Below, piece after piece: positions 1-62,670 of a stretch of DNA of 64,000 nt. Position 1 is the stretch's first letter, and every line of letters begins with the position of its first letter. The DNA is from Methanobacteriota archaeon (GTDB lineage: Archaea; Thermoplasmatota; DTKX01; VGTL01), in NCBI GenBank assembly GCA_016874675.1, contig VGTL01000006.1, positions 9,009 through 73,008 on the forward strand, in the 5' to 3' direction. Below the pieces are notes generated by a model. That model was not told where the DNA came from, did no database searches, and was given only the letters and a program-made list of their open reading frames with translations. A program made the position numbers and the translations under genes.

Positions 1-2778
1 CTTGCGGCCATCGACGAGCCTTCCCTGGAGGGGCGCAAGGCGGCCCTCTCGGCGATGCTCAAGGACGTTTCGAGGATTCCCGACCTGGAGCGGGGGCTGG
101 AGGCCCTGCGGGCGGATTCGGCCCAGATGCGGGAGCAGGAGCGGACCCGCCGGGAGGAGGAGCGCACCCGGAGGGCCGCCCTGTCGGAGAAGCTCTTCTG
201 GTGGTCCTCCCACGGACTGGCGGTCGACCGCCTCGAGAGCGCCCTCGCCGGCGACATTTCGGCGGCGGAGCGGGAGTTCGGGCGGTTCGAGCCGGCGGCC
301 CAGCGCCTCGTCGCGATAGCGATGTCCCTCTCCTCCCTGGACGTGTCCGGGTTCCCCCGGGAGGCGGCCGCCTTGGAGGCGCTCCTGGGCGACGTCGGGA
401 ACCTCGAGGGCGCCGAGGCCGCCTTCGCGGAGCTCTCCGGGCTGGCCGCCCGGCACTCCCGCGAGGCGCAGGAGAGGAGGGCGCTCCGGGACCGTCTGGA
501 AGCGCTTCGCGCCAGGGGCTTTGCCGTCGGGGCGGTGGAGAAGGCCCTGGAAGGGGACCTCGGCGGGGCCCAGGCCGCGCTGACCGGCTTCGAGGAGGAG
601 GCGCGGGCGGCCGAGACGATGCTGTCCCAGCTGGGCTCGCTCGACTTGCGCGGGTTCGAGAAGGAGGCGGAGAGGCTGCGCCGGGCGCTCCTGGACCCGT
701 CCCGCAACCGGGAATCCCGCCAGGAGCTCGGCTCCCTCGTCGCCGGGGTGGAGCGCGCCCGCGCCGAGGAGCTGGAGAGGGAGGAGTACCGCCGCAGGAT
801 AGGCGAATGGAGGAAGGGCGGGCTCCAGACCGCGCAGCTCGAGGCGCTCCTCAACAAGGACATGGCCGCGCTGCGGAAGGCGGTGACGGCGTTCCAGTTC
901 GACGTCGACCTCCACGACGACCTCGTCGGCCTGCTCGAGCCCCTCGCCGGGACCAGATACGCCGACGAGGCGGGGCGGCTCCAGCGCGAGCTGCGCGACT
1001 TCTCCAGGATGCCCGCCCTCGAGGATGAGGTGGCGGCGCTGCGCGCCCGGGCGGAGTCGGAGGCGCTGGCGGCCGGCCAGGAGGCGGCCCGGGACCTTTC
1101 GACCGACCTGGGGCTCCTGAGGAAGGTCCAGGGATGGGTGGAGGGCGGGCTGGCCGTGAGGAGGCTCGAGGGCGCCCTGAGGCACGAGCGCGACGGCTGG
1201 CGTGCCGAGATGGACCGGCTGGAGAAGGACATCGAGGAGCTCTCCCGGGAGGGCTCGGCGCTGGAGGTCCTCGACACGAAGGGGCACGAGGCCGACAAGG
1301 AGCACATCCGCTCTCTCCTGGGCGACCCCGACAACCTCCCGCTGGTGCGGGCGTACCGGGATTCGCTTCGGGCCAAGATCGCCCGGCGGAAGAAGGAGGG
1401 CGAGAGGAAGGCCTCCCTGGCGGCGGTCGCGGCGGACTGGGAGAGGCGCGGGCACCGCATAAAGGAGCTGCGCGCCTTTCTCGAGAGCGACCTGGACCGG
1501 GCCTCCTCCGAGTTCGTGCTGTTCAGGACCCGCATGGCCGCCGCCGAGCACCTGCGCCGCCGGCTGGACGCCCTGGAGCTTTCCGGCGCCGACGGGGAGG
1601 TGGAGCGGCTCCGCCGCAGGCTCAACGAGACCGACGACCCGGCGGCCCTGGTCCCGGAGGTGGAGGCCCTCTGGAAGGCATCCGAGGAGAGGGGCCGCGA
1701 GCGGGGCCTGCGGAGAAAGGCAGCGCGGGAGCGCAAGCGGATTCTCCGCGAGAGGATCCTCGGGTGGCTGGAGAGGGGTTTCTCCGTGAGGAGGCTGGAG
1801 CGGGCGCTGGAGCTCCCCCCCGACGAGGCCGACAGGGAGATCGCCCGCTTCGAGGAGGACCTCCGGAGGCTCCAGGCGCTGGCGGACCGAGTGGCGACGT
1901 TCGATGCCCCGGGCTTCGAGCCGGAGCTCGAGGCGCTGCGCCGGATCCTTAACGACGTCGACCGGATTCCCGACGTCGACAGGAGGCTCGAGGAGCTGGC
2001 CGCCAGGGCCGAGAGCGCCCGCCTCGAGGATGAGGCCCGGAAGGAGGCCGAGAGGGCCCGGCGGGCCGAGGAGGAGCGGCGGCTCGCGCTCCGGCGCTCC
2101 CTCGAGGAAAGGCTCCGGGAGTGGGGCGGGCTCGGCCTCAACGTCGAGGGCCTCAGCGCCGCGCTGGCCGGGGACCTGGCGCTCGCCGAGAAGCGCTTCG
2201 CGGAGTTCGAGGGGGCGCTGCTCCGCTGCGAGGAGCTCCGGGGGGAGCTCCACGCGCTCTTCGGCCGCGTGCCCGAGGGCGTCCCGGGGGCCGAGACCGT
2301 GGAGCGGATGCTCCAGGACCCGCTCAAGCTCTCCCAGGCGGAGAGGGCCCTCGCCGAATACAGGAAGAGGGCGCAGGCCGCGATGGCGGCCCGCGACGCC
2401 GAGCTGGAGCGGTTCAGGGCGCGCATCAGGGAGCTCGGAGCGGCCGGCGAGGACGTCGGGCCGCTCGAGAGCGCGGCGGGGAAGGGGCTTTCGGAGGTCC
2501 GCCAGGCGTTCGCCGAGTTCGAGAGGGGCCGCAAGCGCCGCGCGCTCGAGGACACCTGGATGGCGGTCAAGAGCAAGGTTCTGAGCGGCCCCCCGCCCGG
2601 CCCGCGGCCGGGGGCGGAGGGGCCAGAACAGCCGACGGCGGCGGGCCCTGAGGGCGGTCGGGCCGGAGCCGGCGGCGCGGCCGCCGGGGCACTACATGCC
2701 CCGGCCGGCGCCCGGGAGGAGGAGGAGGCGGCGCCCGGCCGGGTGGCCAGAAGGAAGGTCAAGCGCATCAGGAAGTAG
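1..2778 (+). CDS. Giant Arg/Glu-rich coiled-coil tandem-repeat protein, paralog 1 (5'-truncated by window edge; at least 925 aa)
   Basis: The reading frame is open from nt 1 through ATG 55 to stop 2778. The protein has at least 7 tandem repeats of about 100-110 aa, each containing an anchor motif such as 'W-x3-G-[FLH]-x-V-x-x-L-E-x-A-L-x-G-D' (e.g. LFWWSSHGLAVDRLESALAGD, EWRKGGLQTAQLEALLNKD, GWVEGGLAVRRLEGALRHE, GWLERGFSVRRLERALELP) flanked by RE-rich predicted coiled coil. The C-terminus is Gly/Pro/Ala-rich and ends in a basic tail 'RRKVKRIRK'. No family was recognised from memory. Confidence 0.6.
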   Translation, partial: LAAIDEPSLEGRKAALSAMLKDVSRIPDLERGLEALRADSAQMREQERTRREEERTRRAALSEKLFWWSSHGLAVDRLESALAGDISAAEREFGRFEPAAQRLVAIAMSLSSLDVSGFPREAAALEALLGDVGNLEGAEAAFAELSGLAARHSREAQERRALRDRLEALRARGFAVGAVEKALEGDLGGAQAALTGFEEEARAAETMLSQLGSLDLRGFEKEAERLRRALLDPSRNRESRQELGSLVAGVERARAEELEREEYRRRIGEWRKGGLQTAQLEALLNKDMAALRKAVTAFQFDVDLHDDLVGLLEPLAGTRYADEAGRLQRELRDFSRMPALEDEVAALRARAESEALAAGQEAARDLSTDLGLLRKVQGWVEGGLAVRRLEGALRHERDGWRAEMDRLEKDIEELSREGSALEVLDTKGHEADKEHIRSLLGDPDNLPLVRAYRDSLRAKIARRKKEGERKASLAAVAADWERRGHRIKELRAFLESDLDRASSEFVLFRTRMAAAEHLRRRLDALELSGADGEVERLRRRLNETDDPAALVPEVEALWKASEERGRERGLRRKAARERKRILRERILGWLERGFSVRRLERALELPPDEADREIARFEEDLRRLQALADRVATFDAPGFEPELEALRRILNDVDRIPDVDRRLEELAARAESARLEDEARKEAERARRAEEERRLALRRSLEERLREWGGLGLNVEGLSAALAGDLALAEKRFAEFEGALLRCEELRGELHALFGRVPEGVPGAETVERMLQDPLKLSQAERALAEYRKRAQAAMAARDAELERFRARIRELGAAGEDVGPLESAAGKGLSEVRQAFAEFERGRKRRALEDTWMAVKSKVLSGPPPGPRPGAEGPEQPTAAGPEGGRAGAGGAAAGALHAPAGAREEEEAAPGRVARRKVKRIRK

Positions 2779-2787
2779 GCGAGCGAT

Positions 2788-5700
2788 ATGAATGAGAAGG
2801 CGTTGCTCGGGGAGAGCGAGAGGAAGGGGTACGAGAGAAAGCTCGAGGACTGGCGGTCGGAGGGGTTCGATGTCGGGCGGCTGGCGCTCATCCTCAGGGA
2901 CAGCCCGCAGGACGCCCCGGGCGCGTTCGAGTCGGCCGAGAAGGGCATCCACCGGAACCGGGAGCTTTTGGGCGAGTTCCGGTCCCTCCGGCCCGCCGGG
3001 CCCGAGGAGCAGGTGTCCCGGATGCAGACGCTCCTGCGGGACCCTTGGATGAGCCGCGAGGCCGAAAACCTCCTCCTGGAGCTCCAGGTCCGGGCCGAGC
3101 GGGTCCGCAAGGAGGAGCAGCGCAGAAAGCGCGAGTCCGAGCGGCGCGTCGGCCGCCTGAGGGAGAGGGTGGCGGCCTGGAAGGGGCAGGGCTTCTCCAC
3201 CGGACCCGTCGAGCGGGCGCTCGAGGGCGACATCGCGGCCGCCGAGCACGAAGTGGAGCGCTTCGGGGAGGCCGTGGGCCGCCTCCTCGCGTGCGAGGAG
3301 GAGCTCGGAGAGCTGGGGGGCCAGGAGTTCGCCGAGGAGCGGAAGGGCGTGCGCGGGATGCTCCGGGACCCGGCGAGGGCGCAGGAGGCCGAGGAGGCGC
3401 TCATAAAGCTGCGCGTCCTATTCGAGAAGCGGAGGAGCGAGGAGCGGCTGCGCGCCGGACAGGAGAAGCTCGCCCGGGCCGCCGTGCGGGAGAGGGTCGC
3501 CGCCTGGAAGGGGGCCGGCCTCAAGGTGCCCCTCGCCGACGACTTCATCGAGAACGCCGGCATGGACCTCCTCAACGAGCACATGGAGGAGCTCGAGGAG
3601 GCGGTGGCGCGGCTTGCGGAGCTGCGCGAGGAGGCCGGGCGCCTTTCGCGGGACGAGGACCCGGCCGGCCGGGAGGCGCTGTCGGCGCTCCTGCAGGACC
3701 CGACGCAGGTGCAGGCCGCCGAGGAGAGCCTCCTGCGGCTCCAGTTCGCCTCGCAGCGCGCAGCCCGCGAGCGGGAGCGGAAGGCCGAGGAGAGCCGCAG
3801 GTGGAGAACCGAGCTGCTCTCCCGGGTCAAGGAGCTCAAGGGCGCCGGCTACGACACCTCCCGGGTCGATTCGGCATTCGACGGCGACGACGAGCACCTC
3901 CGGACCGAGTGGGTGAGGTACCGCATCCAGCTCAAGCGGGTGCAGGAGCTCGAGGAGGAGCTGCGGACCCTTCACTCCGAGGGGTTCGAGAGGGAGGTCG
4001 GGGCGCTCGTCGCCGACCTCAGGAGGGTCGGCCTGGACACCACCGAGCGGGTGCTCGCCGGAAAGCGCGCCCTCGAGGAGAAGATGGCGGCGCGCCGGGA
4101 GGCGGAGCTTAGGGCGCGGGAGGCCGAGGAGCGCGAGAGGCTGGAGCTCACAAAGAGGCTCGGGGGCTGGATAGGCGAGGGCTACCGCGACGGCCGGCCG
4201 GGCGGGCTGGAGGCCCTCGGCTCCCTGCCGATGCCCGAGATGCGAGGCGAGCTCGGGGAGGTCGAAAGGAGGGTCCGCCTCGTCGAGCAGATGCGCCGCG
4301 AAGTGATGTCTTTGGACATCACCGGCTTCGAGACCGAGAGCGCCACGCTGCTCGACGAGCTCTACGACATCTCCCGGCTCGATGTCTCCGGACCGAGGGC
4401 GGAGGAGCTCCGGACGAGGATTCTCGCCAAGCGCGAGGAGGAGCGGCGCCGGGCGGAGGAGGAGCGCCGGCGGCGAGAGGAGCTGCGCTCCAAGATAGCG
4501 GGCTGGAAGAAGCTGGGCTTCGAGGTGTGGGCGCTGGAGGCCCTGCTCGACGGGGACCTGGAGTTCCTCCGCAGGGAGTACTCGCTGGCGCGCATGTCCA
4601 TCCAGAGGGCCCAGTCGCTCCTGGGCGAGCTTGCGGCGATACCGGCCGAGGAGGCCGGGCCCGAGCACGCCGAGGTGCGCCAGAAGATCTACACCCTGGA
4701 GCGGCTCGACGATTGCGCCGAGCAGATAGAGAGGCTCCGGCTTTCGGCCCAGGAGAGGGGCCTCCAGCGGAAGAAGCTCGAGGACCTGCGCGAAAAGATC
4801 CGGGAGTGGAAGGAGCAGGGCCACGACGTCTCCCGCCTGGAGCGCCTCGACGACGGCGACATAGAGGTGCTGACCAAGGAGTTCCTGATGTTCAAAATCC
4901 GGATCCAGAAGCTCCGGGAGCTCGAGGAGGAGCTCGAGGCCCTGGACACCGAGGGGTTCGAATCCGAGCGGGCCGCGATCGAGCGCAACCTGAAGAACGT
5001 CGAGGCGCTGGGCGAGACCCGGGACCTCCTCTCCGGGCTCGAGCTCAAGATAGGCAAGCGGATGGCCGAGGAGGTGCGGCTCAGGGAGGAGCGGCGCAGG
5101 CTTCAGGGCGAGTACATCGCCAAGATGTCGGCCTGGCTGGAGGAGGGCTTCCACGTCGACACGCTGGAGGGCGCGCTGGGCAAGAAGCCCTCCGAGATGG
5201 CGTCCGATTTCGCGCGCTTCGAGAGGTCCGTCGAGGAGATACGGCAGATACGCGAGCGGCTCGAGGAGTTCTCCGGATTGGGCTACGACGAGCTCATCGC
5301 ACGCATCCGGGAGAAGCTCCGGGAGGTCGGTCGCATAGAGGAGGCGAAGAAGGACGTCCACGAGCTTTGGGAGAGGGTGGAGCGGAGGAAGAAGGAGAGC
5401 GAGAGCCGCCGCAGGGAGGACGACGACCTGCGCTTCGGGATCGTCAGGCAGATAGAGGCCTGGGAGGCGGAGGGCTACGACGTCGGGGAGCTGCAGAAGC
5501 TCAGCGGCGGCAGGCTCGAGGACCTGCGCCGCGCCGTCATCACCCACCGGATGAGGATAGAGAGGATGCAGGGCCTGGAGGGAATCCTCGACGCGATGGA
5601 GACCCGGGAGTTCGGGACCGAAGCGGCGGCCATACGGGCCCAGCTCAAGGACCTCGACCGCGTCGAGCAGGTGGAGGGGGCCATCGCCGCCCTGAAGGAG

Positions 5701-6864
5701 GAAATCCGCGGCCGAAAGGAAGAGGAGCGAGCGGGCAGGGAGAGCCTCCACCGGCGGCGGGACGAGTGCACCGACCGGTTCCTCTCGCTGCTCTCCCAGG
5801 GCTACAATGTGGACACGCTGGAGGGGGCGCTGGAGCTTCCCTACGAGGCGCTGCACGCCGAGTGCGGGCGCCTCGAGGGCGTGGTCAACCGCCTCAAGGA
5901 GATCGGGGCGGAGCTCGAGCGCCGGGGGCTGCTCGCCGGCAACGCCGGTGCGAAAAAGAGGCTGTTCGACCTTCACGCGCTTGCGGAGCTCGAGGAGTAC
6001 CTGGCCACCGGGAAGGCCCCCTGGGAGCAGCGCCCGGCGCCCGACAGGATCCCGATAATCCGGTACGGGCACGGGAAACGGGCCGAAGAGGCGCCGGCGA
6101 GGGCGGCCGCGGTGGAGCTGCCGGAGCTCAAGCCGCCCGGCAAGCCGGTGACGCCGGCACCGGCCCGGTGGACCGCGCCTTCGCTTGCGGCGGCCGTGAC
6201 AGGCGCGCATCCGGGGACGGAGGCGCCGGCCCACCCGCCGGCCGCGCCTGCGCCGCCCGAGCGCGCTCCCATGGGCCGAACCTGCGAGGGCTGCGGAGAG
6301 CCGCTGGACCCGACTTGGAAGAAGTGCCCCTCCTGCCTGAGGCCGGTGGGGCCGACCGGGACCGCGGTGCCCCGGCCGGAGCCCCAGCGCCAGCCCCTCA
6401 TAGACAGGATTCCGGCCCGCCCGGAGAAGGAGATGGGCATCCGGGATCAGTCGGCGGGCCACCGGGAGACCTCCCGGAGGGAGACGCAGCTCGACCCCGA
6501 GAAGCTGGCCTCGCTGCGCAAGATGATCGACCAGTGGAAGTCCGACGGCGACGATGTCGGGGACCTCGAGGAATACCTGGATTCCGGCGTGGTCACGAAG
6601 GAGGGGATGAGGAGGAGGCTGGAGGCCATCAACGAGAAGAGGAAGCGGGCCGCGGAGGAGCGGGCCACCCGCCACGAGGGTCCGGCCGCCGGGGAGCGTG
6701 AGGCCCCCTCCACCGGCGAGAGGCCCGAACCCGGGGAGGGGCCGGACGGGCCGCCCGGGGAGCGACCGGCCGACGGTCCCGCCGAGGAGACGGCCGCCCC
6801 GGACGCACCGGCCCCCGGGGAGGGAACCCGGAAGATTAGGAAGGTCAAGAAGGTGGTCCGCTGA
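2788..6864 (+). CDS. Giant Arg/Glu-rich coiled-coil tandem-repeat protein, paralog 2 (1358 aa) with C-terminal zinc ribbon
   Basis: The protein has 10 tandem repeats with a period of about 109 aa (327 bp). Anchors lie at aa 22,131,240,349,461,573,674,783,892,1001 (AWKGQGFSTGPVERALEGD, AWKGAGLKVPLADDF, GWKKLGFEVWALEALLDGD, EWKEQGHDVSRLERLDDGD, AWLEEGFHVDTLEGALGKK, AWEAEGYDVGELQKLSGGR ...). A zinc ribbon 'CEGCGEPLDPTWKKCPSCL' falls at about nt 6274-6345, followed by one more anchor copy (QWKSDGDDVGDLEEYLDSG). The tail is acidic and Pro-rich and ends in 'RKIRKVKKVVR'. Confidence 0.65.
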   Translation: MNEKALLGESERKGYERKLEDWRSEGFDVGRLALILRDSPQDAPGAFESAEKGIHRNRELLGEFRSLRPAGPEEQVSRMQTLLRDPWMSREAENLLLELQVRAERVRKEEQRRKRESERRVGRLRERVAAWKGQGFSTGPVERALEGDIAAAEHEVERFGEAVGRLLACEEELGELGGQEFAEERKGVRGMLRDPARAQEAEEALIKLRVLFEKRRSEERLRAGQEKLARAAVRERVAAWKGAGLKVPLADDFIENAGMDLLNEHMEELEEAVARLAELREEAGRLSRDEDPAGREALSALLQDPTQVQAAEESLLRLQFASQRAARERERKAEESRRWRTELLSRVKELKGAGYDTSRVDSAFDGDDEHLRTEWVRYRIQLKRVQELEEELRTLHSEGFEREVGALVADLRRVGLDTTERVLAGKRALEEKMAARREAELRAREAEERERLELTKRLGGWIGEGYRDGRPGGLEALGSLPMPEMRGELGEVERRVRLVEQMRREVMSLDITGFETESATLLDELYDISRLDVSGPRAEELRTRILAKREEERRRAEEERRRREELRSKIAGWKKLGFEVWALEALLDGDLEFLRREYSLARMSIQRAQSLLGELAAIPAEEAGPEHAEVRQKIYTLERLDDCAEQIERLRLSAQERGLQRKKLEDLREKIREWKEQGHDVSRLERLDDGDIEVLTKEFLMFKIRIQKLRELEEELEALDTEGFESERAAIERNLKNVEALGETRDLLSGLELKIGKRMAEEVRLREERRRLQGEYIAKMSAWLEEGFHVDTLEGALGKKPSEMASDFARFERSVEEIRQIRERLEEFSGLGYDELIARIREKLREVGRIEEAKKDVHELWERVERRKKESESRRREDDDLRFGIVRQIEAWEAEGYDVGELQKLSGGRLEDLRRAVITHRMRIERMQGLEGILDAMETREFGTEAAAIRAQLKDLDRVEQVEGAIAALKEEIRGRKEEERAGRESLHRRRDECTDRFLSLLSQGYNVDTLEGALELPYEALHAECGRLEGVVNRLKEIGAELERRGLLAGNAGAKKRLFDLHALAELEEYLATGKAPWEQRPAPDRIPIIRYGHGKRAEEAPARAAAVELPELKPPGKPVTPAPARWTAPSLAAAVTGAHPGTEAPAHPPAAPAPPERAPMGRTCEGCGEPLDPTWKKCPSCLRPVGPTGTAVPRPEPQRQPLIDRIPARPEKEMGIRDQSAGHRETSRRETQLDPEKLASLRKMIDQWKSDGDDVGDLEEYLDSGVVTKEGMRRRLEAINEKRKRAAEERATRHEGPAAGEREAPSTGERPEPGEGPDGPPGERPADGPAEETAAPDAPAPGEGTRKIRKVKKVVR

Positions 6865-9732: not shown

Positions 9733-10164
9733 TTGGGGCTCAGCGTCTCCGCAAGCTTCGCCATCCTCGCCGTCGCGTTCTTCATCGGGGTCGCCCCCCT
9801 CATCGAGTCGGTGTTCTACGCCTCCAACAGGCTCATGGAGGGCGCCAACGATGTCGCCGACTGGAAGATGGCCTGGGCCCGGACCAACATCCAGGTCGAC
9901 AACGCCACCTACAACGGCACCCTGACGCTTCTGAACCTCACGAACATCGGGAGCACGGTGCTCACCGTGGACGGGGTCTCCGTGCTCCTGAACGGGACGT
10001 ACGTGCCGCACAACGCCACCAACGCCACGGTCGAGGGCAAGGCCACCGACATCTGGTCCCCCAACGAGAAGCTCCGGCTGGAGCTGAACGTGACCTCCGC
10101 GCTCGACGAGCGGGTGGTCGTGGTCACCGGCAACGGCGTGGCGAAGTACGGGGTGATCGCCTGA
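9733..10164 (+). CDS. FlaF/ArlF-like archaellum stator protein
   Basis: An N-terminal hydrophobic helix is followed by a beta-rich domain with many N-glycosylation sequons (NATY, NGT, NLT, NAT). Operon position follows FlaC/D/E. Start is a TTG codon. Confidence 0.5.
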   Translation: MGLSVSASFAILAVAFFIGVAPLIESVFYASNRLMEGANDVADWKMAWARTNIQVDNATYNGTLTLLNLTNIGSTVLTVDGVSVLLNGTYVPHNATNATVEGKATDIWSPNEKLRLELNVTSALDERVVVVTGNGVAKYGVIA

Positions 10165-10167: not shown

Positions 10168-10275
10168 AGGGGTCAGGGTTCGGGGTCCAGGGTTCAGGGC
10201 GGGAGCCGCGCCTGCCCGTCCCGCCCGTCGTCGTCCCCCTGCACCCTGCACCCTGCACCCTGCACCCCCGTCCCG
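10168..10275. repeat. G-tract tandem array + core + C-tract inverted array (hairpin/G4-capable), between flaF and flaG
   Basis: The element reads '(GGGTYCA)n gggcgggagccgcg CCTGCCCGTCCC gcccgtcgtcgtc (CCCTGCA)4 ccc'. Its central core is shared with the 16424-16572 element. Confidence 0.7.
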
Positions 10276-10788: not shown

Positions 10789-12627
10789 ATGGAGTTTCTG
10801 GAGTGGGCCCGCCGGCAATGGAGGGAGTCCGACCGGCTCTCCGCGGTGCTCTGGGCGGTTGTCATCGGCGCCATCGCCATCCGCTCGGTGCCGGGCTGGA
10901 TATACCCGGCCTGGGGAAGCGACTTTGGCATCTATTTCGGCATAACCCAGGACTTCGTCGAGAACCCGCAGTTCTTCCGACCGTACAGCGGCTGGGGCAC
11001 GAGCTACAGCTACTTCCCCGTGCTCTACGCCACGACGGCCGCGGTGCACGGCCTCACCGGATTGGACCTGGCCTTCCTGATGCCCAAGGTGGCACCGGTG
11101 TTCGGCGGGCTGACCGTGCTGCTGCTCTATCTCTCGGTGAAGGGGCTCTTCGGGCGGCGCGAGGTCGCCCTGCTCGCGGCGGCATTCCTGGCGGCCAATC
11201 CGTTCCAGGTATACCAGACCAGCCACGCCGCGCCCATGACCATGGGGCACTTCTTCCTGTGCCTCTCCGTCCTGCTCTTCGTGCTGCACCGGAGGGACAG
11301 GTTCTGGACCGGGCCGCTCTACATCTCGACCGCCATGCTGGTCGGCTCGCACCACCTCGGGACCTACTTCTACATCCTCTTCGTGTTCGCGGCGATCGTC
11401 TGGCGCAACCTCCAGTCGCGCGAGTGGACCGAGAACCTCAAGGAGGAGCTCTTCTACTTCCTGGCGACCGTCACTCTCACCTTCTCCTACTGGATACTGG
11501 TGGCGACCCCGGTCTTCCGGGCGGACTTCGCCTCGGCCCTGCCCATCGGCTCGTGGTCCACGGTCGGGCTGTTCTACGTGCTGGTCGCCGGGGTGTTCGC
11601 CGCCATCATCTTCCTGCGCCGGTCGGAGCGCTTCCGGCGGTTCGTGGCGTGGAAGCTCTGGTGGCCCACGCCGCGCGAGGACGCGGTGAAGGTCGGGGCG
11701 ACCGTGGCGGCCTGCGCGGGATTGTCGGCGCTGTTCACGGTCGTCCCCATATACGGCTCGAACTTCACCTTCCTGCCCGCGGCGACCGCCTTCCTCCTGC
11801 CCCTTTTCTTCATCCTGGGGCTATCCGTGGCCGGCTACCGGTACCTCGACCGTTTCCCGGACCGGGCCTACGTCAAGGCGTGGCTCCTGTCCACCACCGC
11901 CTCCTTCCTGTTCGCCGTAATGACGCGCAACCAGGCCATATATTCCTTCCGTCACCTCGAGTACTTCGCCTACCCGCTCTCGATAATGGCGGGGGTCGCG
12001 GTGTGGGAGATTTGGGGGTATATGGGGAAGGCAGGAAGGCAACGAGGCAGCAAGGCAGCAGGGAAGGACCAAGGCACTTTGGGCGCAAAGGGGGAGGCGG
12101 GCGACCGGACGCCGGGGAGGAAGTGGTTCGCACTCGGCGTCGCGGCGCTGGTGGTGGCGAGCGCCGCCACCGCCTACTCGGTGCAGAGCACCACCTCGCG
12201 GTTCGAGGAGTCCATCTCGGCCGAGGTGTTCGAGGCGGCCGACTGGATGCAGGAGAACGTGCACACCAACCTGACCGTGGCGAGCGACCACCGCGTGAGC
12301 CAGATAATCTGGACAAGGGGGTTCAAGGTCACCTCCGACGAGGCCTACTGGATATTCTTCGCCGAGAACTGGACCGATGCCCTAGACGAGCTCAACGGCA
12401 CCCAAAGGACCTACGGGAGGGTGGGCTTCGTCGTCATCGACGACGTGATGCGAGAGAAGGGCGTGCAGTCCAACCTCAACGAGACCCCCCGGCCGATAAC
12501 CGACCTCCATTACGCCAAATTCTCGCAGGAGCCGTTCCGGCTCCTCTTCCGCGCCCGGAGCGCCGACGGTTCGAAATGGGCCGAGGTCTCCGCGGTGGAC
12601 TGGGGGTACATAGAGAAAAACGGTTGA
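10789..12627 (+). CDS. Polytopic membrane glycosyltransferase (GT-C fold, PMT/ArnT/AglB-like) with soluble C-terminal domain
   Basis: About 11 predicted TM helices lie in the N-terminal 400 aa and the C-terminal domain is soluble. The gene is adjacent to the archaellum genes. No WWDYG motif is present, so it is not a canonical AglB. It contains an in-frame repeat insertion at 12022-12080. Confidence 0.5.
   Translation: MEFLEWARRQWRESDRLSAVLWAVVIGAIAIRSVPGWIYPAWGSDFGIYFGITQDFVENPQFFRPYSGWGTSYSYFPVLYATTAAVHGLTGLDLAFLMPKVAPVFGGLTVLLLYLSVKGLFGRREVALLAAAFLAANPFQVYQTSHAAPMTMGHFFLCLSVLLFVLHRRDRFWTGPLYISTAMLVGSHHLGTYFYILFVFAAIVWRNLQSREWTENLKEELFYFLATVTLTFSYWILVATPVFRADFASALPIGSWSTVGLFYVLVAGVFAAIIFLRRSERFRRFVAWKLWWPTPREDAVKVGATVAACAGLSALFTVVPIYGSNFTFLPAATAFLLPLFFILGLSVAGYRYLDRFPDRAYVKAWLLSTTASFLFAVMTRNQAIYSFRHLEYFAYPLSIMAGVAVWEIWGYMGKAGRQRGSKAAGKDQGTLGAKGEAGDRTPGRKWFALGVAALVVASAATAYSVQSTTSRFEESISAEVFEAADWMQENVHTNLTVASDHRVSQIIWTRGFKVTSDEAYWIFFAENWTDALDELNGTQRTYGRVGFVVIDDVMREKGVQSNLNETPRPITDLHYAKFSQEPFRLLFRARSADGSKWAEVSAVDWGYIEKNG
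12022..12080. repeat. Single-arm GGCAGNAAG tandem array inserted in-frame in glycosyltransferase CDS
   Basis: The sequence 'gggaaggcaggaaggcaacgaggcagcaaggcagcagggaagg' encodes 'GKAGRQRGSKAAGKDQG' in a loop between predicted TM helices. Confidence 0.65.
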
Positions 12628-12745
12628 GGCAGGAAGGCAGCAAGGCAACACGGCAGAAAGGCAGAAAAGGGACGAGACCCCTTCTCGTCCGCTCCCCTTC
12701 TCCCTTGCTGCCTTTCTGCCTTCCCGCCTTCCTGCCTTTCCCCGA
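12628..12745. repeat. Inverted-repeat element (GGCAGNAAG)n ... (CTTNCTGCC)n between convergent genes
   Basis: The element reads 'ggcaggaaggcagcaaggcaacacggcagaaaggcagaaaag' / palindromic centre 'gacgagaccccttctcgtc' / 'cccttgctgcctttctgccttcccgccttcctgcc'. Confidence 0.8.
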
Positions 12746-14471: not shown

Positions 14472-14583
14472 CGCGACCCCCCAGCATTGAAATGCGAGGC
14501 CCCACGCTTCGCTGCGTGAGACAGACCCCGGATTGAAATCCGGGGCATCGACGCGCTAGCCCGGCTTGAACCAAGCAATCGGT

Positions 14584-16403: not shown

Positions 16404-16415
16404 GTATATATATCC
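16404..16415 (-). promoter_or_regulatory. TATA-like element for sdhB operon
   Basis: The sequence 'gtatatatatcc' lies about 70 bp upstream of the sdhB ATG on the minus strand. Confidence 0.35.
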
Positions 16416-16423
16416 ATCTTGAG

Positions 16424-16572
16424 ACAAGGGGCAAGGGGCAATGGGCAATGGGCAATGGGCAAGGGGCAAGGGGCAAGGGGCAAGGGGCAAGGGGCAAGGG
16501 GCGGACGGAGCCTGCCCGTCCCTTGACCCGTGCCCCGTGCCCCGTGCCCCTCGCCCTTGTTTCTTGCCCCTC
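16424..16572. repeat. (GGGGCAA/GGGCAAT)n array + core + (CCCCGTG)n inverted array; canonical G-quadruplex motifs on both strands
   Basis: About 12 heptamer units are followed by 'ggcggacggaGCCTGCCCGTCCCttgacc' and then 'cgtgccccgtgccccgtgcccctcgccc'. It lies in the sdhB / sod divergent region. Confidence 0.8.
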
Positions 16573-16604
16573 CATTATGAGAGATTCGTGCCAGATTCTG
16601 CAAT

Positions 16605-16616
16605 AGCTATAAAAAC
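16605..16616 (+). promoter_or_regulatory. TATA-like element for sod
   Basis: The sequence 'agctataaaaac' lies about 40 bp upstream of ATG 16655. A GGAGCGGAG Shine-Dalgarno lies at 16643-16651. Confidence 0.4.
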
Positions 16617-17269: not shown

Positions 17270-17278
17270 ATTGTTGAA

Positions 17279-17466
17279 AGGGAGCAAGGGAGCAAGGCAG
17301 CAAGGGAAGGCAGGAAGGCAGAAAGGCAGCAAGGCAGCAAGGGAAGGCAGCGAGGGGGGAACGAAGGGAGGAGGGCAGAAGGCGGAGAGGGAGAAGGGGA
17401 GGGCGAGAATAGGTACCGTTCCCTTCCTGCCTTCCCTTGCTCCCTTGCTGCCCTCGTCCCTTCGTC
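17279..17466. repeat. Inverted-repeat element (GGCAGCAAG/GGGAGCAAG)n ... (CTTGCTSCC)n between convergent sod and BNR genes
   Basis: A purine-rich arm (17279-17408) is followed by the centre 'aataggtaccgtt' and a pyrimidine arm 'cccttcctgccttcccttgctcccttgctgccctcgtcccttcgtc'. Confidence 0.8.
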
Positions 17467-21745: not shown

Positions 21746-21903
21746 AAAGGCGCAAGGCGCAGGGCGCAAGGCGCAAGGGACGAAAGCGCAAGGTACAGGG
21801 CGCGAGGCGGAAGGGATTTGCGTGAGATCCCCCCTTGTTCCTCGCGCCTTGACCCTTGCGCCTCAAGCCTTGCGCCTTGCGCCTCGTGCCTTGCCCCTTC
21901 GCG
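21746..21903. repeat. Inverted-repeat element (GGCGCAA)n ... (TTGCGCC)n between moeA and mobB
   Basis: The element reads 'aaggcgcaaggcgcagggcgcaaggcgcaagggacgaaagcgcaaggtacagggcgcgaggcggaaggg' ... 'ccttgacccttgcgcctcaagccttgcgccttgcgcctcgtgccttgcccctt'. A short partial copy lies at 22703-22730. Confidence 0.8.
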
Positions 21904-30685: not shown

Positions 30686-30912
30686 GAAGGGGGCGGGGAG
30701 CGGGCGGGAAGGGAGGAAGGCAGCAAGGGAAGGCAGGAAGGCAGCAAGGCAGCAAGGGAAGGCAGGAAGGCAGCAAGGCAGCAAGGGAAGGGAGGAAGGG
30801 AGAAATGGGAGGACCGTCGTCCCTTGCTGCCTTCCTGCCTTCCCTTGCTGCCTTGCTGCCTTGCTGCCTTCCTGCCTTCCCTTGCTGCCTTGCTGCCTTG
30901 CTGCCCTCCTGC
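30686..30912. repeat. Largest inverted-repeat element (GGCAGCAAG/GGCAGGAAG)n ... (CTTGCTGCC)n in ftsZ / folD divergent region
   Basis: A roughly 120-nt purine arm is followed by the centre 'gggaggaccgtcgtccc' and a roughly 90-nt pyrimidine arm 'ttgctgccttcctgccttcccttgctgccttgctgccttgctgcc...'. Confidence 0.85.
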
Positions 30913-30921
30913 CAATCGCTC

Positions 30922-38161: not shown

Positions 38162-41100
38162 ATGGGTGTGAATTCCAAATGTTCGGTTGACCCGGCGATA
38201 AACAAGATGGCGACCGTGGCGGCGGCCTGCGGCTGCGACACCACGTTCGACAGGACGGAAGCGATGAAGCCCCAGTGCGGCTACGGCGAGCTGGGCCTGT
38301 GCTGCCGCATCTGCATGCAGGGGCCCTGCCGCATCAACCCGTACGGCGCCGAGCCCAGCGTGGGCATATGCGGCGCCAGGGACTACACGATGGTCGCCCG
38401 CAACATCATCCGCATGGCCGCGGCCGGCGCGGCCGCGCACTCCGACCACGGGCGGCACATCGTCCACACCCTGCACTCGGTGGCGGAGGCGAAGGCCCCC
38501 GCCTACCAGATAAAGGACAAAAGGAAGCTCCGCAAGGTGGCCGCCAGGCTGGGACTGCAGGTGGAGGGAAAGAAGGATGACGAGCTGGCGCTCAGGGTGG
38601 CCGAGATCGCCCTCAACGACTATTCCAGCCAGGGGGAGGAGGTCACCGCCTTCGTCAAGGCCTATGTGCCGGAGAAGCGGCTCAAGCTCTGGGACTCGCA
38701 CGACGTCCTCCCGACCAACATCGACCGGGGCATATGCGAGGTCATGCACCGCAGCACGATGGGCTGCGACGCCGACCCTGTCCCGCTGATATTCGGCGGC
38801 ATCAAGGCGGCGCTGGGCGACCTCACCGGCGAGTTCATCAGCACCAACATCTCGGACATACTCTTCGGCACGCCCAGGATAATCAAGGCCGAGGCGAACA
38901 TGAACGTCTTCGACGTCGACGCCGTCAACATCGTCGTCCACGGCCACAACCCGATAATGAGCGAGGTGATGGTGGACGTGGCGGGCGAGCTCGAGGGCGA
39001 GGCCAAGGCCGCCGGGGCGAGGCACGGCGTGGCCATATCTGGCATCTGCTGCACGGCCAACGAGCTCCTGATGAGGCACGGCATCCCCATCGCCACGAAC
39101 TTTTTGGGCCAGGACCTGGCCATCGTGACCGGAGTGGTGGACGCCATGGTCGTGGACTACCAGTGCATCATGCCCGCGCTGGCACCCACCGCCCAGTGCT
39201 TCCACACCAAGCTCATCTCCACGATGCCGATAACCCGCGTCCCGGGCGACATACACATCGAGTTCAACGAGAGGACGGCCAAGGAGGGCGCCCGCCAGAT
39301 AGTCCGGCTGGCCATCGAGGCCTTCAAGCACCGCGACCCGACCAAGATCCAGATACCGGAGATGAAAGCATCCGTCGTTGCGGGCTTCAGCTGCGAGGCG
39401 CTCGAGGACCTGCTGGCCAAGCTCAGCCCCGCCGACCCGTGGGGCTGGCTCGTCGAGCGCATCCGGGACGGCCGCATCCAGGGCGTGGCCCTCATCGCCG
39501 GATGCAACAACCAAAAGAACCTGCACGACGAGTGCCACAACACCGTGGCCATGGAGCTTGCCAAGAACAACGTCCTCGTGCTCGCCACCGGCTGCGCCGC
39601 CCAGGCGTACGCCAAGCACGGCCTGCTGTCGCAGGAGTTCGCCGAGAAGTACGCCGGCGACACCCTCAAGAAGGTCCTCGGGGAGATGGGGCAGGCCGCC
39701 GGGCTCAAGTCGCTGCCGCTCGTGCTGCACATGGGCTCCTGCGTGGACAATTCCCGGGCCCAGGAGCTGGTCGCCACGCTTGCCTCGAAGTTCAACGTGG
39801 ACATCAGCCAGCTCCCCATCGTGGCGAGCGCCCCCGAGGCGATGAGCGAGAAGGCCGTCGCCATCGGCACCTGGGCCATCACGATGGGCTGGCCCACCCA
39901 CGTCGGCGTGTACCCGTACATCAAGGGCTCGAAGCTCGTGAACGAGGTAGCCGAGAAGACCGCCCGCGACGTGTACGGCGGGTTCTTCATCTTCGAGCCC
40001 GACGCCGCCGTCGCCTCGAGGAAGCTCGTCAACATCGTCAAGCACCGCCGCTGGAGGATGGGCATCGGCCCGGAGCCCGTCGGCATCGACGGCTACGGCC
40101 AGGTCGCCGGCACCGAGAAGAGGACCACCCAGCGCCAACTCTACAAGATGGCCATCGATGGCGCCATAATCGCCACGGGCTACGCCGAGATACTGCTCAA
40201 CCGGGCCATCCACAAGCACGGCGCTGGTCACGAGGTCTCCTACCCTGGCACCGCCTACGGCCTGCCCTGCATCGACGCCTGGACCGGGGTCGAGGTCAAG
40301 AAGCTTGCGGACCTGCCGCCCCTCCTGGGCGCCGTCCGCGGACGCATCAAGGAGGAGTACACCTACGAGAACGCCTTCGCCGCCGGCGAGGCCGTCCTCT
40401 ACTCGGCGGAGATAGTCGAGGCGCTCAAGTACCTCGACGGGACGGACCCCTACGAGGACAAACGCCCGTACACCGGATTCGTGGGCGACCCCATCCTGCG
40501 CAAGCTGGGCATCGCATTCGTGGACGACACGATACCGGCCGCGGCAGTCTTCGTCGGCAAGGCCAAGGACCCCAAGGCGCTGGTCAGGCTCGTCCGCGAG
40601 TGCCAGGAGAAGGGCATGCTGATAATCGCCACCTTCGACATCATCCAGCAGCTCCAGGACAACGGCTACCGGTTCGACGAGGGCAACCACTACGGCCTGG
40701 ACGTCATGCTCTACCCCGTCGGCGAGTTCACGCAGGCCATCCACGGCGCCTCGTTCGCCACCCGGGCGGCCCTGGCCTTCGCCGGAATAAAGCGCGGCGA
40801 CCGCAAGGCGCTCTACGAGTACCTGCACAAGCGCCCCCGCGTCTTCGTGGTCCAGCTCGGGCCCCTCGACGACATCAAGGTGGCCGCGGAGTTCGGCGTG
40901 CTCTTCATGGGCAGCCCGACCATCACGGACCAGGACATCGAGGAGATCCCCGACAGGTACGTGATGGAGAAGGACTACACGAAGATACTGCAGCGCGCGA
41001 CCGAGCTTAGGGACATCAAGTACAAGCTGACCAAGGTGCCCATACCGGTGCTCTACGGGCCCTCGTTCGAGGGCGAGTCCATCCGCAAGCAGGACATGTA

Positions 41101-42271
41101 CCTCGAGGCCGGGGGGACGCGCACGCCGGCCCTCGAGTACGTCCGCATGGCCCCGGCCGAGGAGGTCGAGGACGGGAAGACAACCTTCATCGGCAAGGAC
41201 GTGGACGAGCTCCCCGAGGGCAAGGCGATACCTCTGGGCATATTCGTGGACGTCTACGGCCGCAAGATGCAGAAGGACTTCGAGAGCGTGCTCGAACGGC
41301 GGATACACCAGTTCACGAACTTCATAGAGGGCGGGTGGCACACCGGCCAGCGCAACCTCATCTGGATCCGGCTGAGCAAGAACTCGGTCAAGCAGGGCCT
41401 CAAGCTCAAGCACCTGGGCACGGTCCTGCACGCCAAGTTCCACGCCGACTTCAGCGGCATCGTCGACCGCGTGCAGGTGACCGTGGTCACCGACGAATCG
41501 GAGCTCAAGAAGCGGGCCCCGGCTGCCATGAAGGCCTACGACGAGCGCGACGCCCGCATACGCGGCCTGACCGACGAGGCGGTGGACACCTTCTACTCCT
41601 GCACGCTGTGCCAGTCTTTTGCGCCCAACCACCTGTGCGTCATCTCGCCCGAGAGGCTGGGGCTCTGCGGCGCCATCAACTGGCTGGACGCCAAGGCCTC
41701 GTTCGAGATAGCGCCCTCCGGGCCCAACCGGCCCTGGAAGAAGGGCGCCACCGTCGACGAGGTCAAGGGCCAGTGGGAGGGCGTCAACGCCGGCGTGAAG
41801 GAGCTCTCGCGGGGCAAGATAGAGCGCTTCAACTCCTACAGCATCATGGAGGACCCGATGACCTCGTGCGGCTGTTTCGAGTGCATCCTGGCGATGGTGC
41901 CCGAGGCCAACGGGATACTCATCATAAACCGCGAGTACCCGGGCGAGACGCCCATCGGGATGAAGTTCTCCACGCTCGCCGGCCAGGTGGGCGGGGGCAA
42001 CCAGGTGCCCGGGTTCCTGGGCGTCGGAAGGCAGTACATCACCAGCAAGAAGTTCATCTCGGCGGACGGCGGGTTCCAGCGGGTGGTGTGGATGCCCAAG
42101 ATGCTCAAGGACGCCCTGCGCGACCGGCTGGTCGAGCGCGGCAAGGAGGTGGGCGATCCCGACTTCGTCCAAAAGATCGCCGACGAGACGGTCGCCACCA
42201 CCACAGACCAGCTCATGGAGTTCCTGCAGAAGGTGAACCACCCGGCGCTGGGAATGAACCCGATGATGTAG
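38162..42271 (+). CDS. Fused carbon monoxide dehydrogenase (CooS/AcsA) - acetyl-CoA synthase (AcsB) single polypeptide, 1369 aa
   Basis: The N-terminal roughly 635 aa carry the CooS signature 'CGYGELGLCCRICMQGPCRI'. From about nt 40060-40140 the sequence aligns with the bacterial AcsB N-terminus (GAIIATGYAEILLNRAIHKHG...YPGTAYGLPCI...VEVKKLADLPPLL) and continues to the A-cluster motifs 'SCTLCQSFAPNHLCVISPERLGLCGAINWLDAKA' and 'SCGCFECI'. The ORF is uninterrupted. Confidence 0.85.
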   Translation: MGVNSKCSVDPAINKMATVAAACGCDTTFDRTEAMKPQCGYGELGLCCRICMQGPCRINPYGAEPSVGICGARDYTMVARNIIRMAAAGAAAHSDHGRHIVHTLHSVAEAKAPAYQIKDKRKLRKVAARLGLQVEGKKDDELALRVAEIALNDYSSQGEEVTAFVKAYVPEKRLKLWDSHDVLPTNIDRGICEVMHRSTMGCDADPVPLIFGGIKAALGDLTGEFISTNISDILFGTPRIIKAEANMNVFDVDAVNIVVHGHNPIMSEVMVDVAGELEGEAKAAGARHGVAISGICCTANELLMRHGIPIATNFLGQDLAIVTGVVDAMVVDYQCIMPALAPTAQCFHTKLISTMPITRVPGDIHIEFNERTAKEGARQIVRLAIEAFKHRDPTKIQIPEMKASVVAGFSCEALEDLLAKLSPADPWGWLVERIRDGRIQGVALIAGCNNQKNLHDECHNTVAMELAKNNVLVLATGCAAQAYAKHGLLSQEFAEKYAGDTLKKVLGEMGQAAGLKSLPLVLHMGSCVDNSRAQELVATLASKFNVDISQLPIVASAPEAMSEKAVAIGTWAITMGWPTHVGVYPYIKGSKLVNEVAEKTARDVYGGFFIFEPDAAVASRKLVNIVKHRRWRMGIGPEPVGIDGYGQVAGTEKRTTQRQLYKMAIDGAIIATGYAEILLNRAIHKHGAGHEVSYPGTAYGLPCIDAWTGVEVKKLADLPPLLGAVRGRIKEEYTYENAFAAGEAVLYSAEIVEALKYLDGTDPYEDKRPYTGFVGDPILRKLGIAFVDDTIPAAAVFVGKAKDPKALVRLVRECQEKGMLIIATFDIIQQLQDNGYRFDEGNHYGLDVMLYPVGEFTQAIHGASFATRAALAFAGIKRGDRKALYEYLHKRPRVFVVQLGPLDDIKVAAEFGVLFMGSPTITDQDIEEIPDRYVMEKDYTKILQRATELRDIKYKLTKVPIPVLYGPSFEGESIRKQDMYLEAGGTRTPALEYVRMAPAEEVEDGKTTFIGKDVDELPEGKAIPLGIFVDVYGRKMQKDFESVLERRIHQFTNFIEGGWHTGQRNLIWIRLSKNSVKQGLKLKHLGTVLHAKFHADFSGIVDRVQVTVVTDESELKKRAPAAMKAYDERDARIRGLTDEAVDTFYSCTLCQSFAPNHLCVISPERLGLCGAINWLDAKASFEIAPSGPNRPWKKGATVDEVKGQWEGVNAGVKELSRGKIERFNSYSIMEDPMTSCGCFECILAMVPEANGILIINREYPGETPIGMKFSTLAGQVGGGNQVPGFLGVGRQYITSKKFISADGGFQRVVWMPKMLKDALRDRLVERGKEVGDPDFVQKIADETVATTTDQLMEFLQKVNHPALGMNPMM

Positions 42272-45379: not shown

Positions 45380-45387
45380 ACGTCGTG

Positions 45388-45480
45388 CAGTCGGTCAAGG
45401 GGACGTGCTGTCGCAATTGGTTAAGGGGACGGGTTGTTGCTATCGGTTGGGGGGATGGGGACGAGGAGGGGGGCGGGGAT
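45388..45480. repeat. Three tandem copies of about 26-bp 'CGCAATTGGTTAAGGGGACG'-like motif downstream of acsE / cooC (convergent)
   Basis: Unit 1 'cagtcggtcaaggggacgtg', unit 2 'ctgtcgcaattggttaaggggacggg' and unit 3 'ttgttgctatcggttggggggatggggacgagg'. G-tracts follow. Confidence 0.65.
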
Positions 45481-62586: not shown

Positions 62587-62670
62587 CTGCTATTGGATAG
62601 GGGGACGTATCTTCGCAATTGGTTCGGGGGACGTGTTTGTCCAATTGGGTAGGGGGAACGACGGTGGGAA
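62587..62670. repeat. Three tandem copies of the same about 26-bp 'CAATTGG-N3-GGGGGACG' motif, downstream of the surface-protein gene
   Basis: Unit 1 'ctgctattggatagggggacgtat', unit 2 'cttcgcaattggttcgggggacgtgt' and unit 3 'ttgtccaattgggtagggggaacgacgg'. Unit 2 matches the 45408-45433 unit at about 21 of 26 positions. Confidence 0.65.

Follow-up and report, generated by a model that had tools for sequence, protein, structure and literature searches.

Inverted heptamer arrays at sdhB-sod and arlF-arlG of a Thermoplasmatota-like archaeon as probable members of a dispersed intergenic palindrome family

Tandem G-rich heptamers that can form quadruplexes have been described in Xanthomonas (GGGAATC) and in Nostoc/Anabaena (GGGGA(C/T)T, the classical short tandemly repeated repetitive, STRR, heptamers) (Rehm et al., 2015; PMC4692102). 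They are mostly intergenic, with a strong bias to positions that overlap a stop codon or lie less than 50 bp from one; related species have them at the same sites, though much varied in length and sequence, and they show no link to insertion sequences, and are of unknown function (PMC4692102). Each Xanthomonas genome also holds 70-75 'convergent' inverted pairs able to form stem-loops (PMC4692102). Repetitive extragenic palindromes (REPs) are a second group, for which roles in mRNA stabilisation, termination and supercoiling have been hypothesised (Di Nocera et al., 2013; PMC3733652). G-rich heptamers and REP-like palindromes are both abundant in some bacteria, their function is still unsettled, and our literature searches found no archaeal description of such elements. 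We analysed 64,000 nucleotides (the window; contig VGTL01000006.1, forward strand) from an uncultured Thermoplasmatota-like archaeon of 68% GC from Lake Tanganyika, whose closest named relatives are Thermoplasmata/Thermoplasmatota metagenome-assembled genomes; its genes include those for the archaellum, succinate dehydrogenase (Sdh), superoxide dismutase (SOD), a Wood-Ljungdahl gene set and FtsZ. Two G-rich inverted arrays, one between the divergent genes sdhB and sod and one between arlF and arlG, are probably related copies of a lineage-specific family of dispersed intergenic palindromes, the sdhB-sod copy most likely being a tolerated insertion or spacer and its capacity to form a G-quadruplex (G4) apparently a by-product of its repeat unit. 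On our comparison, the closest described kind is the Xanthomonas/Nostoc heptamers taken together with REP-like elements, and the family does not amount to a new category.

The sdhB-sod element was characterized by direct reading and with Tandem Repeats Finder (TRF). Its left, G-rich arm (16425-16502, + strand) consists of 11 CAAGGGG heptamers, three of them in the form CAATGGG, and carries 12 G3-4 tracts (TRF: period 7, 11.1 copies, 97% matches). The centre (16503-16526, + strand), GGCGGACGGAGCCTGCCCGTCCCTTGA, forms a small hairpin of GGACGG (16503-16508), the loop AGCCTGC and CCGTCC (16516-21), and includes the 13-mer GCCTGCCCGTCCC at 16510-16522. The right, C-rich arm (16527-16573, + strand) begins with (CCCGTGC)x3.4, called by TRF at 16527-16550, and continues to 16573, by direct reading, as four degenerate units (CCCTCGC CCTTGTT TCTTGCC CCTCC). 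This downstream array is about 6/7 complementary to the upstream one, GGGGCAA pairing with CCCCGTG at 6/7 positions (arm identity 0.88), a relationship that the original prediction had missed. The predicted fold of the element is a single long hairpin, interrupted in each unit by a bulge or mismatch of 1 nt, with GGACGG/AGCCTGC/CCGTCC at its apex (DNA -57.1 kcal/mol, z -6.4; RNA -105.2 kcal/mol, z -6.6). Its arms are unequal, 78 and 47 nt, the left one exceeding the pairing capacity of the right by about 4-5 G-tract units.

Three independent assemblies from different samples (L001, L003, L004) cover the whole sdhB-sod spacer and agree at every base, so it is not an assembly artefact. A further sample (L199) reads CAAGGGG at the three units that are CAATGGG in the window; the element is thus real, with slight polymorphism. 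Two of the five assemblies break near the element: L199, whose positions 1-70 align to window 16438-16507, begins within the left arm, and L002 begins some 46 nt downstream of the right arm. The unit differences and breaks together indicate probable population heterogeneity or assembly collapse in the array.

The arlF-arlG element follows the same hairpin plan. Its left arm (10168-10199, + strand; (AGGGTTC)x4.6 by TRF) begins 3 nt past the arlF stop codon (10162-10164), its 37-nt centre (10200-10236, + strand) has the 13-mer at 10210-10222 followed by the family-typical CCCGTCGTCGTCC, and its right arm (10237-10275, + strand) is (CCCTGCA)x4.4 (TRF 10237-10267). GGGTTCA and CCCTGCA likewise pair at 6/7 positions. 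Only 24 nt, including GGAGG, separate the right arm from the ATG of arlG (10292), so that arlG is transcribed through the element. The fold has a weak z (-1.3 to -2.1) because shuffles of such G-/C-rich sequence also fold well. Reading and TRF thus confirmed the arrangement that had been proposed for both loci, G-rich heptamers, a centre and a C-rich array. The proposed contexts, the divergent promoter region of sdhB and sod and the gap between flaF and flaG, also held: an SdhB Fe-S subunit and an Fe/Mn SOD were both identified beside the 16425-16573 element, and ArlG (FlaG) scored 127.5 bits against a cut-off of 110, with ArlF (FlaF) the best match at 97.6 bits, under its cut-off.

To place the two elements in a family, metagenome sequence was scanned with one canonical 20-mer. 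This gave 105 contig stretches; 56 were GC-rich, and most of those came from Lake Tanganyika. A census was then taken over the window and the 56 GC-rich contigs, using TRF and a simple pairing rule for arrays within 130 nt; gene calls outside the window were based on GC content at third codon positions (GC3). Since these contigs were selected for carrying the canonical repeat, the frequencies are biased. The census gave 50 distinct sites with a common plan: an array of a purine-rich 7-8-mer, a short GC palindrome that is nearly always a variant of GGGACG..loop..CGTCCC, and a complementary array. All 52 array pairs were purine-rich-first, with none in the reverse order. The dominant unit is the 8-mer AAGGCAGC; arrays of the GGGGCAA type are a minority, and other units are AAGGCGC, AGGGGCA, GGGCAGC, GGGTGAA, TGCAGGG, CCGGGTG, GGGTGCC and GGGAGCA. 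Elements have a median length of 190 nt (range 85-420 nt) and a median short/long arm ratio of 0.65, and their arms are overall about 80-100% complementary (mean 0.84 for 7-mers, 0.88 for 8-mers). Given that family arms are usually unequal and 0.84-0.88 complementary, the asymmetry and periodic mismatch of the sdhB-sod element are ordinary. We also considered 7-mer G-tract variants as a structurally distinct class and rejected this, since their pairing differs little from that of the 8-mers.

The original prediction argued from the shared 13-mer that the two elements are copies of one element and not independent simple repeats. The exact 13-mer occurs in the window at these two loci only, as had been stated; allowing 1 mismatch raises the number of matches to 4, for an expectation of 0.76. 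Nor is it a frequent chance sequence: apart from re-assemblies of the two known loci, no further exact copy was found in about 569 kb of related GC-rich contigs, a sample that includes repeated copies of the window's own region. One near-copy in this sample, GCCTTCCCGTCCCGC, matches 12/13 bases of the 13-mer and 15/16 of the arlF-arlG version, and forms the centre of a small GGGCAGC-type G-tract heptamer element (L173, reverse strand 2000-2100, about + 11350-11450). No flanking arrays were seen within about 45 nt on either side of the other 1-mismatch matches. Moreover, 8/13 bases (CCCGTCCC) make up the right half of the central palindrome that the whole family shares, and are found with many unit types; the five bases GCCTG are specific to the sdhB-sod and arlF-arlG centres. 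The suggestion that the 13-mer is the conserved core of a recurrent G4 subtype was accordingly abandoned. The search for further copies with flanking arrays came close to the outcome that the original prediction had named as refuting it, with no exact copy and a single 12/13 copy in an element centre. A true subfamily would be supported if many G-tract elements carried GCCTNCCCGTCCC.

The relatedness of the two elements is a separate matter, for which the evidence lies in the centres as a whole. Local alignment of the sdhB-sod and arlF-arlG centres gives a score of 30, reached by 0/2000 shuffles, and scores against the other five window centres are 12-18. Across the family, 26/1225 site pairs share at least 13 nt of centre, with none in 20 shuffled sets. 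An identical 16-nt centre, GACGACGGGTCGTTCC, is present at five sites with unrelated flanking genes, in either orientation (L098 3535-3791, L114 9140-9394, L124 5940-6161, L121 3155-3409 and L144 1-175); subsets share 20-30 nt, some as far as the 30-nt AAGGGGACGACGGGTCGTTCCGTTTCCCTT, and this centre is asymmetric. Among the five sites the arms vary in length and in the order of their units; for the closest pair, L098/L114, the identical stretch reaches into the inner arms and is lost further out. These five sites give the clearest evidence that seeds are copied from site to site. Because unrelated sites share centres exactly, the elements are best described as dispersed copies of seed hairpins with hypervariable arms, whose units differ in sequence and number and whose symmetry varies. 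Shared centres being a general trait of the family, common descent of the two elements holds despite the rarity of the 13-mer: they are related members of one family and not independent microsatellites, although their common core is not specific to a G4 subtype.

Seven elements lie in the 64-kb window, the five beyond arlF-arlG and sdhB-sod having AAGGCAGC or AAGGCGC units. That at 12627-12738, with AAGGCAGS / CCTTCCTG arms and the centre GGACGAGA..TCTCGTCC (fold z -7.1), lies between a converging 612-aa gene and sdhA, and that at 17278-17462 between sod and a 482-aa gene, also converging. An AAGGCGC / CCTTGCG element (21747-21899) separates moeA from mobB, 19 nt ahead of the mobB start, and the largest member (30703-30913), with 87-nt arms that are 87% complementary, ends about 23 nt upstream of the ftsZ start. 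A near-perfect member, (GGCAGCAA)x4 / (CCTTGCTG)x4.5 (51354-51438; fold z -12.7), lies between converging fdh-like and DUF3786 genes. In the census, a stop codon lies within about 30 nt of an arm at some 36/50 sites, with a median of about 11 nt, as read from the distances, in co-directional cases; single elements stand between converging stop codons, 2-20 nt from each. Elements occupy spacers of every orientation; most begin no more than about 10 nt from a stop codon, and promoter or Shine-Dalgarno blocks are left intact. Occupancy was 19% of tandem, 29% of convergent and 16% of divergent spacers, with no significant difference in this biased sample, so that depletion from divergent spacers was discarded as evidence of a 3'-end function.

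The starts of arlG, mobB and ftsZ follow an element by 19-24 nt, which leaves room for a Shine-Dalgarno sequence and none for a promoter; these elements are therefore read through and are not strong terminators. Runs of five or more T, expected of a hairpin plus U-tract or an archaeal oligo-T terminator, were not found after the right arms checked. Rfam gave no match at gathering threshold in the whole window; below threshold there were only eukaryotic microRNA-precursor hairpin models (23-35 bits against thresholds of 47-137), generic noise, and a tRNA search of the window found none. Several look-alikes were set aside. The arrays are not CRISPR arrays, having head-to-tail units of 7-8 nt without spacers. 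A GGGGCAA-like run at 57851-57875 lies inside an archaeosine TGT domain and appears to encode a glycine-rich stretch. GGGGCAA x3 on nine phage contigs forms solitary G-rich arrays without a complementary arm, unrelated microsatellites. Separately, triplets of a 26-nt-period repeat lie at 45387-45459 and 62592-62657, each just past the end of a gene (consensus roughly CAATTGGnTAnGGGGGACG + 7 nt); they carry the GGGGACG half of the family centre without an inverted partner, and were not found in the other loci fetched.

G4 motifs were defined by regular expression as four runs of at least three G with loops of 1-7 nt. As predicted, both elements have such motifs on the + strand of the arm upstream of the core and on the - strand of the arm downstream. 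Among the seven window elements only these two have G4 motifs on both arms, and both are among the 4/50 family sites that do. A motif on either strand is present at 18/50 sites and on neither at 32/50, and most family members, with AAGGCAGC or AAGGCGC units, have no G3 tracts; G4 competence therefore depends on the unit and is not a family constant. The structure that defines the family is a hairpin or cruciform-capable inverted array, and where G4 competence exists it would be in competition with a very stable predicted hairpin. The sequence data gave no evidence of G4-specific selection or regulation, and none excluding it.

How these elements compare with described systems follows from the same properties. 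Like the Xanthomonas/Nostoc repeats, the two elements are tandem heptamers with a G3-4 tract and at least four units (11 CAAGGGG; 4.6 AGGGTTC) in a GC-rich prokaryotic genome, and like the Xanthomonas convergent pairs they have the G-arm first, as do 52/52 pairs of the catalogue in purine-first form. A stop codon lies 3 nt from the arlF-arlG element and within 30 nt of roughly 36/50 sites; the sdhB-sod element lies between divergent genes, and divergent spacers, which are under-represented for the bacterial heptamers, are not clearly reduced for the archaeal elements. Unlike the bacterial repeats, those described here have an archaeal host, many 7- and 8-nt units in one genome, most without G3 tracts, and no evident preference for four units. 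They also share a seed palindrome between dispersed copies and have long unequal arms, and where the bacterial systems have one dominant enriched unit, here it is AAGGCAGC and not GGGGCAA that dominates.

With REPs, bacterial interspersed mosaic elements (BIMEs) and REP doublet hairpins (REPINs), including CGTC-tagged REPs, the elements have in common that they are high-copy, species-specific extragenic palindromes (Di Nocera et al., 2013, PMC3733652; Bertels and Rainey, 2011, PMC3116915, in the accessible part of that account). Like REPs, they lie mostly between co-directional or converging genes, just downstream of coding regions, and are often transcribed in operons; inverted pairs fold into larger hairpins (PMC3733652). 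The archaeal centres are rich in GACG/CGTC. Many dispersed extragenic copies were found, 7 in 64 kb, with identical 16-30-nt centres at up to five sites. REPs are, however, single palindromes of 20-40 bp with a terminal GTAG/CGTC tag, whereas the archaeal elements are 85-420 nt long, have array arms and carry CGTC centrally. To our knowledge, REPs have not been described in this archaeal lineage. Eukaryotic foldback elements also have inverted arms built of short tandem repeats. The archaeal elements resemble these and MITEs (miniature transposable elements with inverted repeats) in being dispersed and non-coding with variable arm length, and possibly in a 5-nt TGAGA flank at sdhB-sod, but are far smaller than foldback elements and have no consistent target-site duplication, defined termini or partner transposase. 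The tandem repeats of the Borgs, extrachromosomal elements of Methanoperedens, as far as the available part of the source describes them, are similarly rapidly evolving, lie between and inside genes and make disordered protein segments (PMC9879509), to which the repeat-encoded linker of the 612-aa protein described below may be compared. Borg repeats are direct arrays in that account (PMC9879509), whereas the elements described here are chromosomal inverted pairs around a seed hairpin. Intrastrand-triplex repeats, which the part of their description at hand presents as a G/C-rich motif (PMC4666352), were rejected as a counterpart since the archaeal arms are not homopurine.

Orthologous sites were compared in related species, reached through the lineage-specific 612-aa glycosyltransferase-like protein: syntenic loci came from species B (L200/L201), C (L202/L203) and D (L206), and a non-syntenic contig from the more distant species E (L204). 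The DNA identity of sdhA is 0.865 between the window organism and B, 0.870 between the window organism and C, and 0.900 between B and C, which makes the window organism the outgroup of B and C. Units of the arlF-arlG spacer are GGGTYCA / CCCTGCA in the window, GTGAACC / GGYTCAC in B, GGGTGCA + GGGTGCC / GCACCCC in C and CAGCGTT / ACGCTGC in D, with RNA-fold z of -1.7, -4.9, -4.6 and -2.7, respectively; the window fold is not significant (11/200 shuffles fold as well, against 0/200 in each of B, C and D). The spacer between the glycosyltransferase-like gene and sdhA has units AAGGCAGS in the window, AAGGCGC in B, AAGGGTGG in C and a GGGTTCA-containing 14-mer in D. Between sod and the 482-aa gene, the window has an element, B and C have a 24-nt spacer without one, and the D contig does not reach the site. 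Between moeA and mobB an element is present in the window only, C having a 31-nt spacer with a 2.7-unit GGGTGCA array. Species E (57% GC) has a small CAAGGCCA / GTGGCCTT pair directly after a stop codon, and no element was found in 21.7 kb inspected of a 42% GC Thermoplasmata genome. Thus the sites of one genome have units in common, and from one species to the next the units change but the hairpin plan does not.

At the sdhB-sod junction, promoter, operator and TFB recognition element (BRE) assignments were inferred from conservation and consensus. A putative TATA/BRE block of sdhB, a TATA-like run with adjacent CCATCT (16405-16419, - strand), is conserved in three species (ATATATATAT(C/G)CATCT), and the element begins 5 nt beyond it. 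On the other side, a sod block (16584-16615, + strand; AGATT..TGCAATA..TATAAAAA in the three species) comprises AGATTC-N5-AGATTC and TATAAAAA, a putative operator and the sod TATA; the direct repeat, which just upstream of the TATA looks like a transcription-factor operator, is present in the window and C and recognisable in B. In species B the junction reads ..ATATATATATCCATCT|AGATTTGCGCC..TATAAAAA, the blocks abutting (..CCATCT|AGATTT..) with no element. The window and C have an element exactly at this junction, with different units (GGGGCAA and AAGGGTGG), different centres and opposite arm asymmetry; in that of C, GGG recurs at 8-nt intervals. The element is upstream of both TATA boxes and, to judge by the sequence, outside both transcription units. 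Because species B has both blocks abutting without it, the element appears dispensable for the presence of both promoters. Its history would be either ancestral presence with clean loss in B, or two insertions into the sole permissive point.

The window copy is flanked on both sides by the short direct repeat TGAGA (16420-16424 and 16578-16582, read from the sequence), which may be a target duplication or a substrate for precise deletion of the element; species B has the empty site. As evidence of transposition it was rejected, being seen at this one site only and contradicted at the sod-482-aa element, where the spacer was replaced and no duplication was seen. SOD is widely exchanged between lineages. 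A contig scan with the SOD protein gave no orthologous locus, the best among the matches listed being 82% identical and on a non-syntenic contig of lower GC (L005). A TTGCCCA..TGGGCAA palindrome 600 nt upstream of sod on that contig belongs to an unrelated organism and context.

Repeat units also occur within a gene. The 612-aa gene (10789-12627) encodes a conserved membrane glycosyltransferase-like protein with a hypervariable linker, for which each species uses tandem copies of its own repeat unit: AAGGCAGS in the window (12028-12060), GGGTGCA in C (L202, 11242-11304) and GTGAACAA in B (L200, 11250-11283). GC3 drops in the linker region, and the linker is absent from a distant homologue (P0019, 59% identical). 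The intergenic units appear to have colonised the coding region, making a disordered linker.

In the reading we favour, that of a dispersed palindrome family, each element would be a GC-rich seed hairpin (GGGACG..loop..CGTCCC) with a 5' purine/G-rich array of 7-8-nt units and a roughly complementary 3' array, the arms growing and turning over by slippage or conversion. Any action would be through the hairpin, as an RNA hairpin in 3' untranslated or intercistronic regions or as a cruciform-capable DNA palindrome; when transcribed, it could have a REP/BIME-like effect on mRNA ends, stabilising the 3' end or partly attenuating transcription. Hairpins lie ahead of 503 mapped transcript 3' ends in the GC-rich Haloferax, and one tested hairpin terminated 59% (PMC7237163). 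Elements would survive wherever promoter or coding sequence stays unbroken. The sdhB-sod copy, at the junction of the sdhB BRE/TATA and sod blocks, would merely space or insulate the divergent promoters, its G4 competence following from the GGGGCAA unit that it carries and not being the selected feature. Several observations weigh against this account. The window open reading frames (ORFs) screened yielded no transposase, and the sites compared showed neither terminal inverted repeats nor a consistent target duplication; the sequence covered was the window and about 0.5 Mb of fragments, the transposase screen did not take in all window ORFs, and no search was aimed at REP-associated tyrosine transposases (RAYTs). 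The sod-482-aa site shows spacer replacement and not clean insertion. Two species whose sdhA DNA differs by about 13% have an element at one and the same sdhB-sod junction, so the position could be functional. Arm complementarity persists despite complete unit turnover, which suggests selection on structure and fits a neutral element poorly, and a 3'-end RNA role is not the whole story because divergent occupancy is not significantly lower.

The elements could also be an undescribed archaeal repeat system, in which the seed hairpin is copied and an active process writes the current 7-8-nt units symmetrically on both sides, by hairpin-directed conversion, templated repeat addition or a dedicated enzyme. 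We regard this as possible but unlikely. If true, it would mean that units are homogenised across sites, even in a protein linker, yet replaced between species, and that the sdhB-sod copy is the product of that machinery at the sole permissive junction between the promoters.

Doubtful, too, is a bidirectional transcription barrier or insulator, in which the hairpin stops or attenuates RNA polymerase from either side, defining or stabilising 3' ends at gene ends and blocking antisense run-through between sdhB and sod. Elements abut stop codons, two converging genes may have one element between them to serve both, termination by a hairpin is possible in a GC-rich archaeon (PMC7237163), and in Xanthomonas the starts or ends of transcripts fall in G4-type repeats more often than in controls (PMC4692102). 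The 52:0 polarity would also suit such a barrier, as the last-made RNA would be pyrimidine-rich in either direction when the hairpin closes. By established hybrid thermodynamics, hybrids of pyrimidine RNA with purine DNA (rY:dR) are weak. The polarity has, however, two possible sources, a functional one of this kind or simple descent, for a purine-first palindrome reads purine-first on both strands and the rule follows trivially from common ancestry. Against a barrier stand the absence of T/U tracts after the hairpins, the dependence of arlG, mobB and ftsZ on read-through with no promoter room after the element, and species B, which has no element between sdhB and sod.

We consider improbable a G-quadruplex promoter switch, in which a G4 folds when divergent transcription or oxidative damage opens the duplex and tunes sod and/or the succinate dehydrogenase operon, with top-strand G4 tracts beside the sdhB TATA and bottom-strand ones towards the sod TATA. 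Negative supercoiling builds up between divergent promoters under the twin-domain model, and this site is where it would accumulate. Textbook motifs are present on both strands, the junction element of species C has its own regular GGG spacing, and bacterial G-rich heptamer oligonucleotides of similar type form stable G4 in vitro (PMC4692102). Yet species B keeps both promoter blocks with nothing between them, the family units mostly have no G3 tracts, arm asymmetry is reversed in species C, and the element lies upstream of both TATA boxes, in neither a transcribed nor a core-promoter position. The complementary arm, moreover, offers a rival hairpin of -57 (DNA) to -105 (RNA) kcal/mol. The surplus of unpaired G-tract units beside the sdhB TATA may keep such a model open, at low probability.

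Quite improbable in our view are arrays of binding sites for a sequence-specific DNA- or RNA-binding protein, such as a nucleoid/partition-like factor or an RNA chaperone, with which the units would co-evolve. Units do recur across sites in a genome and differ between species at orthologous sites, and a species' own unit is arrayed even inside a protein linker; but unrelated units (AAGGCAGC, AAGGCGC, GGGGCAA, GGGTYCA) coexist in the window, a period of 7-8 bp does not match the helical repeat, and no candidate protein was identified. Two independent simple-sequence expansions sharing the 13-mer by GC-rich chance are very improbable: C-/G-rich low complexity raises chance matches and 8/13 bases are a motif common to many elements, but the exact 13-mer is nowhere else in the window or the 569 kb, no shuffle reached the centre score, architecture and polarity are shared with the 50 family sites, and the pyrimidine-first order, equally likely at random, was never seen.

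The lineage appears to fill roughly one in six intergenic spacers with inverted-array hairpins, a fraction that comes from the biased sample. Orthologous full, empty or different-unit sites offer a natural comparative system for asking whether a selfish, a structural (mRNA ends, supercoiling) or a regulatory nature fits such elements, and by what means the arms stay complementary while their units are replaced. For annotators of these genomes, the warning is that most conspicuous G4 motifs are side-effects of a single repeat family and that contigs tend to break inside the elements.

Other features of the window were noted. The 112-nt spacer from sdhA to the gene of the CCG-domain subunit (14472-14583) is about 90% identical between the window and species B and contains two hairpins whose loop is ATTGAAAT in both cases (GCATTGAAATGC and CCCCGGATTGAAATCCGGGG); species C, in which the genes overlap, lacks this spacer, which may be a small conserved RNA or regulatory element within the sdh operon. 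At 38162-42271, a 1369-aa ORF fuses a Prismane/CODH domain with ACS beta-subunit domains (CdhC, ACS_CODH_B_C); its neighbours are pterin-binding, RACo, FTHFS and formate-dehydrogenase-like genes, a bacterial-type Wood-Ljungdahl cluster in an archaeon. Two ORFs of 907 and 1358 aa (55-6864), with no Pfam/NCBIfam match, lie directly upstream of KaiC/ArlH-like and archaellin genes, and in species B their counterparts in the same place are 1610 and 1423 aa long.

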